Source: a virus
Taxonomy: Duplodnaviria > Heunggongvirae > Uroviricota > Caudoviricetes
IMG/VR virus record: IMGVR_UViG_2579779149_000003
Length of the DNA: 22,140 nucleotides
Reading direction: 5' to 3' (one strand)
Numbering within the stretch: the stretch's first letter is position 1; every line of letters starts with the position of its first letter. The translations under genes and the position numbers were made by a program. Below the pieces are notes generated by a model. It saw nothing but the letters and a program-made list of their open reading frames with translations, searched no databases and was not told the DNA's origin. Below, piece after piece: positions 12,450 through 20,458 of this stretch.

Positions 12450-12494
12450 TATCTGTATCCTGTGGCTATTTCTCTTGCGCAAAGGATGCTTTTG

Positions 12495-13373
12495 ATGACG
12501 CAGCAACTCGAAAACATGCCAATAACAGAAATCGAAATTGCCTACGGTGGAGAGGCATACGCAGATAATCAGATCGACGCGAAAACATTAGGCGAAGCCT
12601 TAACCTCTCTTAGTGCCCTGATTGAACACGCCGAAAAAATAATTAATGGCGAAACAGCAGAGCCGAAAGTCAACATCAAGGCAACAAAAGAAGGTTCATT
12701 TACTTTGCTTGTTGCTGTGATGGGGAGCATAAAAACTATTAACGCCCTTGGCCTCGTTGCAGGTGGTGGAGTTGCCGCAGGTGGCGTACTCGGGATAATC
12801 GAATGGCTCAAAGGGCGTAAAATCAGCTCCATTGTCGTCGATGAACAAAAAGATACAGCAGAAATCGAAGTGGATGGTGAGAAGGTTAAATGCAGTAACG
12901 ACATTCAAAAATTAATAACCAGTCCAATCATCCGAAAAGAACTGGATAAATTAATCTATAAACCCCTGCAGACTGAAAAACCATCCACGTTCTCAGTTTC
13001 ACAGCAGAAGCATAAGGTAGTCAGGGTGACGCAAGCTGAAGCAGTAAGTTTTAAAACTGCAAAATCCACCTTTGTCGAGAAAACGCACGTAACGACACGC
13101 CAAGCTAATGTACATTTTGCTAATGTTCGATTCAAGCAAGGCAAAAGCTGGGATATCATCCTGCCAAATGGCGAAGAAGTTAGCGCATCTATGAAAGATG
13201 AGGCTTTTCTTGAACGGGTTGAACACAACCAAGCAGCATTCTGTAAGGGTGATCTTTTTGTTGTAGAACTGACAGAAACAACAAAAGAAACAAATGGCGC
13301 GCTGTCTAAACCACGCTATAGTATTACTAAGGTTATACGCCACAGAGCGGCGGCAGATAGGAAACTACTTTAA
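12495..13373 (+). CDS. Hypothetical membrane-associated protein (about 292 aa), first gene of an AT-rich three-gene cassette
   Basis: ORF open from 12462 (GTG); the preferred start ATG 12495 (MTQQLENMPITEIEIAYGGE...) has AAGGA 9 nt upstream. Central glycine-rich hydrophobic segment SFTLLVAVMGSIKTINALGLVAGGGVAAGGVLGIIEWL flanked by soluble N- and C-terminal regions. No family recognised. Confidence 0.65.
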   Translation: MTQQLENMPITEIEIAYGGEAYADNQIDAKTLGEALTSLSALIEHAEKIINGETAEPKVNIKATKEGSFTLLVAVMGSIKTINALGLVAGGGVAAGGVLGIIEWLKGRKISSIVVDEQKDTAEIEVDGEKVKCSNDIQKLITSPIIRKELDKLIYKPLQTEKPSTFSVSQQKHKVVRVTQAEAVSFKTAKSTFVEKTHVTTRQANVHFANVRFKQGKSWDIILPNGEEVSASMKDEAFLERVEHNQAAFCKGDLFVVELTETTKETNGALSKPRYSITKVIRHRAAADRKLL

Positions 13374-16908: not shown

Positions 16909-17064
16909 TTACTCCTCAGGTTCGTAAGCTGTGAAGACAGCGACCTCCGTCTGGCCGGTTCGGATTCGTACCTCGCAGAGGTCTTTCCTCGTTACCAGTG
17001 CCGTCACAATGACGGTTAAACAGATGACGATCAGGGCGATTAACATCGCCTTTTGCTGCTTCAT
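16909..17064 (-). CDS. hokD: Hok-family type I toxin (HokD/RelF-like, 51 aa)
   Basis: From the internal ATG at 17064: MKQQKAMLIALIVICLTVIVTALVTRKDLCEVRIRTGQTEVAVFTAYEPEE, recognised as HokD/RelF. The in-frame upstream extension (ORF from 17121) is probably leader sequence. Confidence 0.85.
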   Translation of the reverse strand: MKQQKAMLIALIVICLTVIVTALVTRKDLCEVRIRTGQTEVAVFTAYEPEE

Positions 17065-17275
17065 AGCCTGCTTCTCCTTGCCTTTCGGCACGTAAGAGGC
17101 TAACCTAGATTTGCCGTTCATAGATTGAGCCTCAGATTAATGTTAAGCGTCTTGCAGGACGCGTAATGTTAACTGGGGCTTTTCTCTATCTGCCTTTGGT
17201 GTTCATGCCTGAGACAGATAGCCTCAAGCACCCGCAGCCATTCTACTTAACTCCCGTTACCTCGCCAATATAAAA

Positions 17276-17650: not shown

Positions 17651-18688
17651 TTAATTACCCTTATCAATTTTAAGAAATACATTTCCAATCTCATCAGAAT
17701 AATCCTGTATTATTTTTGAAATGACGGCATGATCAATGGTTGGTTTTAAAAATAAAAGTGTCACAGTAATCTGCATCAAACTAATAGCAGTAGCATGGGC
17801 TGGATCAGCCATTCCTGAATCACTTTGCCCGACCAATAATATATCATCACCAGTTTCACAGAGACCAAGCCTATTTCTCATTGCCTTGGAACCGGTGTGT
17901 ACATTCTGACTCGCCCACTTATAATAAGGGCGCATGTGTTCTAACTGAACATCTTTCTCAATAGCTCCAAACCCCACTTTATTATGGTTAGGGAAAATAT
18001 AAGATGCCCAGCCATAATTATCTGCATATTTTTTGCCATATTTTTTTATTAATATATCAAATTGAACTTTACACTCAGCTATTTCTTCAATAGTTGGACC
18101 TTTTGCTTCTAACCGGTGCTCGTACTTTTTGTGTTCCAACATTCCAGTATATGAATCAACCACTTCATGGTAGTAAAAGCGCTCAGCACACTCTTTTCCA
18201 TGCTTTGCTATAAACATAGCTGTGGCCGCTACCTCATGAAGTGCTCGCCATCTCGCTTGGGCAGCATCTGCAAATCCATTCTTTAAGAGACACAAAATTT
18301 CGTTGGCGATGTGGCAAGCTCTTGCGTGATGCCGAACGACTAAATCAAAAACCACATCCTCTTCAGAGGCAGCTTGTGGTCTATAAGAACGATTGAACTC
18401 TTCACCGGACTCCGTGCATATCACTATAAGTGTTTCGAGCAAATCAAAAGCCTCTGCCCATCTTGAAATATTTCTCTCAACAAATTCATCACAAAGAGAA
18501 CGATGTTCTCTAAGCATTGCATTGGCCGAGCCAATAAGAGATTTTTTAACGACAATGGCTATTTTGGGAATTAGGTTATTAATTTCTTTTTCGATATCAG
18601 CGTCACCAGATAAATCAAGTCTCTCTTTTAAAAGGCTGTCTATGTGCTCAAGCAAAATATTATGAAAAGTATCCATGTCATATCTCAA
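17651..18688 (-). CDS. Hypothetical 345-aa protein, AT-rich orphan gene (candidate defence or abortive-infection gene)
   Basis: Long ORF MRYDMDTFHNILLEHIDSLLKERLDLSGDADIEKEINNLIPK... with K/I/N/E-rich composition, flanked by AT-rich intergenic regions. No family recognised. Confidence 0.7.
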   Translation of the reverse strand: MRYDMDTFHNILLEHIDSLLKERLDLSGDADIEKEINNLIPKIAIVVKKSLIGSANAMLREHRSLCDEFVERNISRWAEAFDLLETLIVICTESGEEFNRSYRPQAASEEDVVFDLVVRHHARACHIANEILCLLKNGFADAAQARWRALHEVAATAMFIAKHGKECAERFYYHEVVDSYTGMLEHKKYEHRLEAKGPTIEEIAECKVQFDILIKKYGKKYADNYGWASYIFPNHNKVGFGAIEKDVQLEHMRPYYKWASQNVHTGSKAMRNRLGLCETGDDILLVGQSDSGMADPAHATAISLMQITVTLLFLKPTIDHAVISKIIQDYSDEIGNVFLKIDKGN

Positions 18689-18903: not shown

Positions 18904-19329
18904 CTAGTAACGTCTAAAATACCTAACATTTCCCTGATAAAATGCCAGAATGCGCTGCATAACTTCGCTCTTCCGGCACTCGCGACAGATTATGTTTAGA
19001 CAACTATCGTAGCGACGTATTTCTCCGTCAGGTAATGACCAGATAAGGTCCGGATCAACCGCAGATGGTTTCTTCAGCTTTGCCCTTGAGAGCTTTTTAC
19101 GGGCATTTTGCCAGTCCTTACGCGCCTGTTCAGACGGGAATAACCCGTAACCAGAGTTGTATACATCGCCACTGGCAACCAGCTCTCTGGCCAGAACGTT
19201 CATCAGATATCTTGTTGCCCCAGTTTTAGTTTCCAGTTGTCTTAACGTCTCGCGCCCACTCTGGCGTACGAGTTCAACAACCTGCCCTTTAATTTTTTCC
19301 CGCTCTTCTTGTGTAAAAACTTTTGCCAC
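18904..19329 (-). CDS. Hypothetical 141-aa protein downstream of the replication initiator gene
   Basis: MAKVFTQEEREKIKGQVVELVRQSGRETLRQLETKTGATRYLMNVLARELVASGD... contains a Cys cluster CLNIICRECRK. It lies where a helicase loader (P/DnaC-like) would be expected but is too small and unlike either. Confidence 0.5.
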   Translation of the reverse strand: MAKVFTQEEREKIKGQVVELVRQSGRETLRQLETKTGATRYLMNVLARELVASGDVYNSGYGLFPSEQARKDWQNARKKLSRAKLKKPSAVDPDLIWSLPDGEIRRYDSCLNIICRECRKSEVMQRILAFYQGNVRYFRRY

Positions 19330-19369
19330 AAGCCCTCCTGAAAATTACCTCATGACCAGAAATTAACAC

Positions 19370-20458
19370 TTACCCCCTGAAGCCCGGCGGAATTTCGTTA
19401 TCCGGTTCAGAAATATGATTCACACAACGCTGGTTGTTCGTGCCGCTTACCGGGAGCAACCAGGGGTTCTCAAAATTCCGGTCCGGTCCAAAAAACGTCG
19501 TCGCTCGCTGAACAAATTCCGTTCCCGTTTTCCCGGTAGCCGCCAAGTATCTTGCGTAACGCCTCACGCCATCCAGCATGGCCTCTGGTGGCACCCCCTC
19601 GCGTAATCTGGCCTTCCAGGCACTGAAAGCGGATTTCTTCGGGTTTGCCCCAGCACGCAACGGGTACTCCCGCCAGACCTGTTCGAACACATCCGGATAA
19701 TCCACTCGTCCCACAGACTGCCCGGTGTTTTCCGGGACTACCCGATCGGCTTCCCGCTGAATGGCGGAATCGGCTTCGGGCTGCTGCAGTTGGTGTGATT
19801 GCTCCGGCCTTGCGGTCATCACCTGCTGCACAGCGCCCGAATCGGCTTTCAGCGCATACGCTGAATCGGCTTCCGGTGTCGTGCCTGCTGGCTGACCAAG
19901 ATTGACGGTCTGAACATCCCCTGCCTGGTTCGTGGCGTTTTTTACGCCATGGACCATAGTGTTTTGATCTTCTTGATCTGTATCTTTATCTGTATCTTTA
20001 TCTGTATCTTTATCTGTCGTGACTCGTCGTGACATGTGCGTGACATTTCGTGACGCGCCGTGACAATCGCCATTTTGTTCCCGCTTTCTTTCCCTCTCTC
20101 GCTGCGCCCTCTTGCGCTCTGCAGGAGATTTTGCGGTTTGCGAAATATTGCCGTTGTCCTCTTTAAGCACCTGGCGTTTTTCCCATCCAGTGATTAAATC
20201 ACCATCAAGTACCCGCCCCTGCATCGTCTGCAAAATTGAATCAATTACCTCTTCTGTCACGTCGAGCGCACTTGCCAAATCTTCTGTCGTGACATCAATG
20301 TGACCTCGCGTGACATTTCGTGACGCGCTCACCAGGAGGTGGATATACACTGCCATCACTGTTGCAATTGGCTGCCCTGACACCCTGGCAATTGTTCGCC
20401 ACTTAGGGTCATTTGGCATGTCATGCCATAATCTGAGCCAGGCGTTAGCCATACTCAC
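19370..20458 (-). CDS. Putative replication initiation protein (lambda O-like organisation: iterons inside the gene, O-like C-terminal motif), 362 aa
   Basis: The C-terminal region DVFEQVWREYPLRAGANPKKSAFSAWKARL...FFGPDRNFENPWLLP resembles the F-x-W-x-YP...K...W motif I recall from phage O-type replisome organisers. The gene contains two clusters of CGTGAC direct repeats at helical spacing and an adjacent AT-rich tandem repeat. Confidence 0.7.
   Translation of the reverse strand: MSMANAWLRLWHDMPNDPKWRTIARVSGQPIATVMAVYIHLLVSASRNVTRGHIDVTTEDLASALDVTEEVIDSILQTMQGRVLDGDLITGWEKRQVLKEDNGNISQTAKSPAERKRAQRERERKREQNGDCHGASRNVTHMSRRVTTDKDTDKDTDKDTDQEDQNTMVHGVKNATNQAGDVQTVNLGQPAGTTPEADSAYALKADSGAVQQVMTARPEQSHQLQQPEADSAIQREADRVVPENTGQSVGRVDYPDVFEQVWREYPLRAGANPKKSAFSAWKARLREGVPPEAMLDGVRRYARYLAATGKTGTEFVQRATTFFGPDRNFENPWLLPVSGTNNQRCVNHISEPDNEIPPGFRG
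19981..20016. repeat. AT-rich tandem repeat, 3 x 12 bp (TATCTTTATCTG), adjacent to the iterons (ori AT-rich region analogue)
   Basis: Three exact tandem copies at 19981..20016; on the minus strand they encode DKDTDKDTDKDTD within the initiator protein. Confidence 0.8.
20018..20064. repeat. Iteron cluster 1: five direct CGTGAC repeats at 10-11 bp spacing (putative ori)
   Basis: CGTGAC at 20018, 20028, 20039, 20049 and 20059. Includes the 21-mer GCGTGACATTTCGTGACGCGC that recurs in cluster 2. Confidence 0.75.
20256..20324. repeat. Iteron cluster 2: CGTGAC-type repeats (three direct plus one variant and one inverted copy)
   Basis: GTCACG (inverted) at 20256, CGTGAC at 20288, 20309 and 20319, and TGTGAC at 20299. 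Both clusters encode SRNVT-type peptide repeats in the initiator. Confidence 0.7.

Follow-up and report, generated by a model that had tools for sequence, protein, structure and literature searches.

A probable replication origin with two iteron arrays inside the initiator gene of a lambdoid Escherichia coli prophage

The DNA analyzed here, IMG/VR record IMGVR_UViG_2579779149_000003 (Caudoviricetes), is a stretch of 22,140 nucleotides, which is referred to as the window hereafter. It is a lambdoid E. coli prophage in reverse orientation. The genes encountered from left to right are the capsid, portal, terminase, lysis, DUF968, hok/sok, DUF5677 and DUF977/Ren-like genes, the initiator gene that is the subject of this study, and the cII/YdaT-like, cro-like and cI-like genes. 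A reading made from the sequence alone (the sequence-only reading) had proposed that this gene, located at 19370..20452 on the minus strand, encodes a phage replication initiator with two iteron clusters in its coding sequence. The profile matches bear out the identification: PHROG 3729 'replication initiation protein' matches over its full length (E = 4e-256; residues 3–362 against profile positions 1–356 of 356), further matches are to the PHROG families 'replisome organizer', 'DnaD-like helicase loader', 'primosomal protein' and 'replication protein', and the gene order cI / cro / cII-like / initiator within the prophage also fits. In the list of open reading frames (ORFs), the gene spans 19370–20458 and starts with GTG at 20458 (362 aa), and all residue numbers given below follow this ORF. 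The ATG at 20452, which gives 360 aa, is the likely start, because a GAGG Shine-Dalgarno sequence lies 5 nt upstream of it and the annotation of a RefSeq homologue with 99.8% identity begins at this ATG. The interval singled out earlier, 19966–20330, covers the origin-like part described below, but not the whole gene. The gene was found in 2694 of 5426 complete E. coli genomes. Most of the E. coli copies are 1077 bp, not 1089 bp, in length.

The repeat core reads CGTGAC on the plus strand and GTCACG in the sense of the gene. It occurs 19 times in the window, as compared with 8.95 times expected from shuffled sequences, and nine copies lie within 307 bp of the initiator gene, where 0.14 would be expected from the remainder of the window (Poisson P = 5e-14). 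Two direct arrays are seen, and are referred to as arrays A and B in the order of transcription. Array B (20018..20064, minus strand; codons 132–147, in a linker predicted to be disordered) consists of five direct GTCACG iterons, for which CGTGAC starts at 20018, 20028, 20039, 20049 and 20059 (spacings of 10, 11, 10 and 10 bp); this array is present just as it had been described. Array A (20288..20324, minus strand; codons 45–57) consists of four direct GTCAC(G) iterons spaced by 10, 10 and 11 bp, with CGTGAC starting at 20288, 20309 and 20319 and a copy of GTGAC only at 20300–20304. About 30 bp downstream of array A, an inverted iteron copy is found on the plus strand (20256..20261; codons D66-V67-T68), and the second cluster, earlier placed at 20256..20324, is composed of these four direct copies and the inverted one. 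The 21-mer GCGTGACATTTCGTGACGCGC, noticed earlier in both clusters, has exactly two copies (20038–20058 and 20308–20328; 0 expected). Both arrays encode ASRNVT-type peptides, as the proposed SRNVT-type translation implied; array A is translated as A-S-R-N-V-T-R-G-H-I-D-V-T, its four iterons being read in frames 3, 1, 2 and 1.

Array B is abutted by an AT-rich tandem repeat (19971..20017, minus strand). The sequence-only reading had recognized this 12-bp repeat, but with three copies at 19981..20016, while Tandem Repeats Finder gives a period of 12, 3.9 copies and 97% matches. The unit (GATAAAGATACA) is purine-rich on the coding strand and encodes DKDT repeats. With a GC content of 32%, the tract is less stable than any other 46-mer of the gene (−49.7 kcal/mol; gene mean, −66.0; standard deviation, 4.5), and it is presumed to be the DNA-unwinding element. 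The number of its units varies: three full units are found in the window and in strain XJ6.1, and two in phage Tritos, Shigella flexneri and E. albertii. Directly beyond the tract lies an imperfect 13-bp inverted repeat with a 5-nt loop (19926..19956; codons 168–178, TMVHGVKNATN), which scores terminator-like on the plus strand. Except for this inverted repeat, promoter or terminator signals in the region were at chance level; no DnaA box was found in the region of the arrays and the AT tract, and there was no Rfam match within the initiator gene. A better version of the inverted repeat, CTGGTTCATGGCGAAAAAA.CGCCAGTGAACC, is kept in four homologues (47–52% protein identity), in which it uses identical codons for L-V-H-G-E-K and A-S-E. 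Its retention hints that the inverted repeat may be a third cis element belonging to the origin or, otherwise, a conserved recombination joint. The order along transcription is array A, ~230 bp, array B, the AT tract and the inverted repeat.

The same layout was found throughout the family. One genome per species was scanned, by which 55 loci were obtained from gamma-, beta- and alpha-proteobacteria and some metagenome bins, and 50 of them were scored. In 41 of the 50 loci, a repeated core occurs in both places (codons ~44–60 and ~118–155) with a spacing of 10–11 bp and in the same orientation. By core, these loci divide into 23 with GTCAC(G), 5 with GTAAC(G) and 13 with GAACG(C); A and B of one gene always have an identical core, and the types are never mixed. 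The position of array B is filled by a same-core array in 41 of the 42 typed related loci scored, and array B, together with the AT tract and the inverted repeat, is present wherever repeats are recognizable, including two loci without array A (L038 and L055). Four more homologues, found by exact protein look-up, have the same layout, and two of them share 29 and 39 identical bases, respectively, between A and B. A purine-rich AT tract starting with (C/T)AGATAA(A/G)A directly follows array B in almost every related locus, whatever the iteron type (on average 61% AT, the gene as a whole having 44%, and 68% purine on the coding strand). At larger distances, the N-terminal domain (N-domain) matches 2067 representatives of 50%-identity clusters (E <= 1e-3). 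In 93 of 126 usable distant cluster representatives, the loop encoded at the array A position and the linker share a peptide of at least three residues, most commonly SRNVT; in the control, about half of the mismatched loop-linker pairs share one. The Serratia and Pantoea homologues L043 and L056 carry a ~100-residue insertion after the N-domain (L043:2501–3700; L056:2501–3810) that resembles a GIY-YIG nuclease (…YVYYVATTDG…RNPWAR…). They are without the usual arrays, and ACTACG(TA) repeats, 9–11 bp apart, lie in the codons at the start of the insertion.

For 22 GTCAC-type loci of many genera, the mean entropy at third codon positions within the array A cores is 0.05 bits, while the mean over 32 equally conserved four- or six-fold degenerate columns outside array A is 1.73 bits (Mann-Whitney p = 3.6e-4). 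The valine is GTC, the threonine ACG, the glycine GGT and the second valine GTC in 22 of 22 loci each, and the second threonine is ACG in 21 of 22. In the GAACG-type loci, E is GAA (13 of 13), R is CGC (13 of 13) and N is AAC (12 of 12). The inverted copy is constrained as well: the valine of (L/F)DVT is GTG in all 18 GTCAC-type loci with this peptide, so that GTGAC is maintained on the coding strand. In the family as a whole, the GTCAC core begins at all three codon positions (84, 55 and 61 times) and is readable in three frames as VT, xH and SR, and GTAAC(G) is placed in the frame that gives a TAA stop in 0 of 61 cases. Since the synonymous sites of array A are frozen in 22–24 loci, selection acts on the DNA.

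These data also bear on the explanation that the repeats are a by-product of a needed peptide motif, or a recent duplication or recombination scar without a DNA function. It can draw on the ASRNVT peptides encoded in both arrays, on the identical 21-mer common to both in the window, and on the up to 39 identical bases between A and B in some genomes, which show that duplication or gene conversion does occur now and then. However, the synonymous positions are invariant only inside the cores, the same core in three frames gives unrelated peptides, the layout, with three types of core, is shared by 41 of 50 loci from different proteobacterial classes, and the arrays fall in what are predicted to be a loop and a disordered linker. 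The frozen sites, the three frames and the GTG valine exclude a purely peptide-level repeat and a neutral scar. Chance or peptide repeats are likewise ruled out by the shuffles, the Poisson statistics and the synonymous-site test, and a recent duplication or scar by the conservation of the layout, long A–B identity beyond the core being sporadic. This explanation is, therefore, hardly credible, and the internal duplication or recombination scar that the sequence-only reading had considered for the second cluster gives way to a conserved family feature with co-varying iterons.

The arrays are passed on along with the N-domain. Where E. coli genomes match the gene only in part, the match ends at query position 596 or 626, corresponding to 19965 and 19995 in the window, namely at the outer edge of the AT tract and inside it; therefore, the N-domain with the arrays and the C-terminal half are exchanged as separate modules. 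In sister proteins, the same N-domain and arrays are joined to the full DnaT DNA-binding domain PF17948, and no homology was detected between the window protein's C-terminal domain and the DnaT-type C-terminal domain of one such protein, P0056. The initiator of an E. coli 2014C-3057 prophage (L063:1499–2614, minus strand) has the C-terminal half found in the window and an unrelated N-domain. Its gene has a repeat of its own, GGGGCTT, with 11-bp spacing (L063:2138–2435): the linker contains three copies and the part coding for the N-domain two, separated by 256 bp. This heptamer occurs five times in 3.6 kb, all within the initiator gene, and five copies were reached in 0 of 200 shuffles; the arrays encode GLEGASKGLK in the N-domain and FEGALKGLR in the linker. 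The two-array plan, therefore, recurs independently, beyond one domain family.

Such co-inheritance is pertinent to the question of which protein binds the repeats. Binding by a protein other than the initiator, such as the adjacent cII/YdaT-like or Cro-like regulator or a host factor, would agree with the finding that no N-domain residue outside the loop tracks the iteron type. Against it, the arrays accompany the N-domain across mosaic junctions and in hosts from alpha- to gamma-proteobacteria with differing neighbor genes, the unrelated N-domain of L063 has a different repeat in the same two places, and the region is free of DnaA boxes; moreover, there is precedent in lambda O and SPP1 G38P, each of which recognizes repeats located within its own gene (PMC3349717, PMC6316719). 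With the arrays being passed on together with the N-domain through mosaics and hosts alike, binding by another protein is judged very improbable. A different idea concerned the loop encoded by array A as the specificity determinant, which was attractive since only loop columns separate the GTCAC type from the GAACG type. It was weakened by L027 (GTCACG) on one side and L023 and L026 (GTAACG) on the other, in which the V-T peptides are identical, the codons differing by a synonymous change.

The AlphaFold2 model of the initiator is poor (mean predicted local distance difference test score, pLDDT, of 49). It contains helices at residues 3–16, 18–27, 31–47, 58–65 and 69–79, a hairpin at 80–88, a low-confidence loop at 48–57, a disordered region at 130–251 (pLDDT < 50) and a helical C-terminal domain at 256–322. 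The N-domain (~residues 1–100; 20150..20452, minus strand) is putatively a winged-helix, origin-binding domain; a Foldseek search gave only weak, non-significant matches to winged-helix regulators (E ~1). According to the model, array A would code for the end of the helix at 31–47 and the variable loop just before the helix-turn-helix, and array B together with the DKDT repeat for the disordered linker. Both arrays are thus predicted to lie in protein regions of low structural constraint, tolerant of a sequence dictated by the DNA. The homologues with six array A iterons have a longer loop, and among the E. coli prophages the copy number of array A is either four or six. The linker also contains a 36-nt direct repeat, with copies 96 bp apart, at 19745–19876, comprising four GAAGCCGAT(T/C) motifs that encode the acidic peptides PEADSA, KADSG and READR; an E. 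coli variant, P0006, is without exactly 32 residues in this region, and the homologues keep both the DNA motif and the peptide motif.

The C-terminal domain (~residues 250–335; 19454..19711, minus strand), delimited by PHROG matches and the AlphaFold2 helices, is presumed to recruit the helicase-loading machinery. The matches to 'DnaD-like helicase loader', 'primosomal protein' and 'replication protein' span residues 132–362 and 205–339, and in these family names the C-terminal half is like the DnaD-like helicase-loading adaptors. The last 24 residues form a DnaT-like tail (19373..19444, minus strand): SEPDNEIPPGFRG, as compared with SEPDNHIPPGFRG in E. coli DnaT. They nearly copy the DnaT C-terminus (PDB 6aep, E = 0.003), but the likeness is confined to the tail, as is seen from the NCBIfam DnaT model NF002770 (19.1 bits against a cut-off of 201; residues 339–362 on model positions 156–179). 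The tail suggests mimicry of the host replication-restart adaptor. Regarding family membership, Pfam gave no significant match for the initiator, and Phage_rep_O was absent even at E <= 10. PF09681, Phage_rep_org_N, was reached at E = 0.13 (12.7 bits against a cut-off of 23.3), with the alignment spanning profile positions 1–118 of 121, and homologues of the initiator are labeled 'phage replisome organizer' by NCBI and PHROG. The protein may thus be, at most, a distant relative of the replisome organizers of the Phage_rep_org_N (SPP1 G38P) type. From the full-length PHROG 3729 match and the lack of a Phage_rep_O match, it is an initiator and not a lambda O homologue, so that the lambda-O-type domain expected by the sequence-only reading did not hold.

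We read the interval, with a probability of roughly 0.7, as the replication origin of the prophage, located inside the coding sequence of its own initiator, with array B and the AT tract as the core and array A as a second site. Three features of an iteron-type (lambda/SPP1-like) intragenic origin are found here: at least three direct repeats spaced by about a helical turn inside the initiator gene, an adjacent AT-rich and easily melted region, and co-variation of the repeats with the DNA-binding module. We infer that the initiator binds the repeats and that the region fires as an origin. In analogy to lambda O at ori-lambda (PMC3349717) and to G38P at SPP1 oriL (PMC6316719), the winged-helix-like N-domain would recognize the short direct repeats, whose GTCACG core recurs once per helical turn. 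The core origin would consist of array B, the purine-rich AT tract and the small inverted repeat. Array A, ~230–260 bp upstream in the surface-loop codons of the DNA-binding domain, would be an accessory, co-evolving site for the same initiator. Initiator molecules on A and B would co-operate by looping or wrapping the ~230 bp between them, and would thereby melt the AT tract. The C-terminal domain and the DnaT-like tail would then bring the host DnaB-DnaC/primosome machinery; for the host factor DnaT of E. coli, recruitment of DnaB-DnaC has been proposed (PMC13377028). The initiator probably depends on loading factors of the host, because there is no loader gene next to it in the window prophage: no DnaC-like or P-like gene was found after it in 18904–19370, and the DUF977/Ren-like gene follows directly. 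In the distant homologues L058–L061 (47–52% identity), a DnaC/IstB-like ATPase gene lies directly after the initiator gene.

The layout appears to be a variant of the lambda/SPP1-type intragenic origin. As in lambda gene O, its place is in the initiator gene, in the part that separates the DNA-binding N-domain from the C-terminal domain, and iterons are followed along transcription by an AT-rich tract (PMC3349717; lambda annotation and repeat scan); the lambda-ori-like layout of iterons and AT-rich tract had been pointed out in the sequence-only reading. The N-domain and the iterons are exchanged as one specificity module, as they are in lambda. At ori-lambda, too, an inverted repeat follows the AT-rich tract. 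Unlike in lambda, the window initiator is not an O homologue, and it is not followed by a P-like or DnaC-like loader gene. In addition, a scan of lambda gives four iterons of 18–20 bp with internal symmetry in one cluster, whereas the window has a 6-bp core in direct repeats and two arrays 230–260 bp apart. The likeness to SPP1 oriL, in gene 38, is that the gene of a replisome organizer, G38P, itself contains the direct repeats that the protein binds and, beside them, an AT-rich element for unwinding (PMC6316719). The SPP1 repeats and AT-rich element (AACAATGATAACAA x 3) are likewise in the linker, at ~codons 121–150, and the similarity of the window protein to Phage_rep_org_N, though weak and below the Pfam threshold, extends over the whole N-domain. 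However, SPP1 has a single intragenic cluster in the scan, its second set of sites being a separate origin, oriR, ~13 kb away, and it encodes its own loader and helicase. The earlier remark that two clusters are unusual agrees with these comparisons, since lambda O and SPP1 gene 38 have one each.

Two separated arrays of the same repeat are known from P1 (incC/incA), F (incB/incC) and phage P4 (ori/crr), where they are thought to interact through the bound initiator and lie within ~1 kb of, or around, the rep gene. These arrays are non-coding and flank the gene, and one of them serves copy-number control (P1 and F) or lies 4.5 kb away (P4). The window arrays differ in that both are translated, have the same orientation, are 230–260 bp apart, and one of them is inside the codons of the DNA-binding domain. 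In plasmids, split iteron arrays are classically an origin array and a control array, as in the handcuffing or titration by P1 incA and F incC. Array A may, accordingly to this precedent, be a negative control element, which would titrate or handcuff the origin array or block transcription of its own gene, so as to hold down initiator level and origin firing; a handcuffing site was among the options named in the sequence-only reading. This explanation is in line with the plasmid pairing of origin and control arrays, with the dispensability of array A in some lineages, with its variable copy number among E. coli prophages, and with its location inside a transcribed gene, where RNA polymerase would run into the bound protein; for lambda, such titration and handcuffing have been discussed in connection with the ori-lambda iterons (PMC3349717). 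On the other hand, a lytically replicating phage has no obvious need for copy-number control, the shared orientation and near-10-bp phasing fit a co-operative complex as well or better, and the computed data do not separate positive from negative action of A. A control element is considered unlikely, while the odds that array A acts positively are put at even. Since synonymous recoding destroys array A without changing the protein, its role is directly testable.

The suggestion of one co-operative, looped or wrapped complex in the proposed origin comes from the shared orientation of the arrays and from the distances between the first A and first B iterons, which cluster near multiples of 10 bp (Rayleigh R = 0.68, period 10.0; 21 of 23 distinct values within 2 bp of a multiple of 10), although this statistic ignores shared ancestry and is partly a product of the gain and loss of whole units. 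Other points also weigh against reading the interval as a two-part origin. The structure model and the fold assignment are weak, as described above. Array A is not universal (L038 and L055 have B only), and because of this absence it cannot be essential for this origin type in general. Five further loci (L030, L032, L042, L045 and L046) have few or no recognizable repeats. No N-domain residue outside the loop separates the GTCAC type from the GAACG type, the domain is carried by only 22 sequenced phages, and no paper on this initiator family was found in the literature searched.

For the family as a whole (~2000 clusters at 50% identity), we tentatively propose, at somewhat less than even odds, a two-part origin in the initiator's own codons that acts via a looped or wrapped complex. 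The second array, ~25 helical turns downstream of A and next to the melting site, would be kept in register with the first. Array A could, in addition, capture the nascent initiator on its own template, because it has just been transcribed when the N-domain leaves the ribosome, and the initiator would then act in cis.

The 'unusual second cluster' is apparently an undescribed feature, conserved and under selection, of a large initiator family. The initiator is present in about half of the complete E. coli genomes and in ~2000 N-domain clusters, and yet its origin has apparently never been described; no description was found in the literature searched, including the Eru replication-unit paper on Shiga toxin (Stx) phages. 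If the two-array origin is true, it would provide a rule for locating origins in many proteobacterial prophages, and the cores GTCACG, GTAACG and GAACGC would define replication-specificity (incompatibility) groups. The arrays are also a compact example of protein-coding and protein-binding codes that overlap in three frames. A looped two-part origin, if true, would represent a distinct origin architecture with a clear triple-frame overlapping code under dual selection.

Observations were also made elsewhere in the window. At 17059–17233, the window matches the antisense RNA sok of Rfam (RF01794; 110 bits), which presumably belongs to a hok/sok module. It is adjoined by a 345-aa DUF5677 / PHROG 27456 gene (17651–18688), which is without a PADLOC match; this gene lies in the part of the window that is richest in AT and lowest in stability, and it was probably acquired as cargo. 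Finally, a 303-aa ORF on the plus strand (12462–13373), opposite to the neighboring late genes and with no Pfam match, matches the PADLOC candidate defense family PDC-S42 (E = 3e-53).

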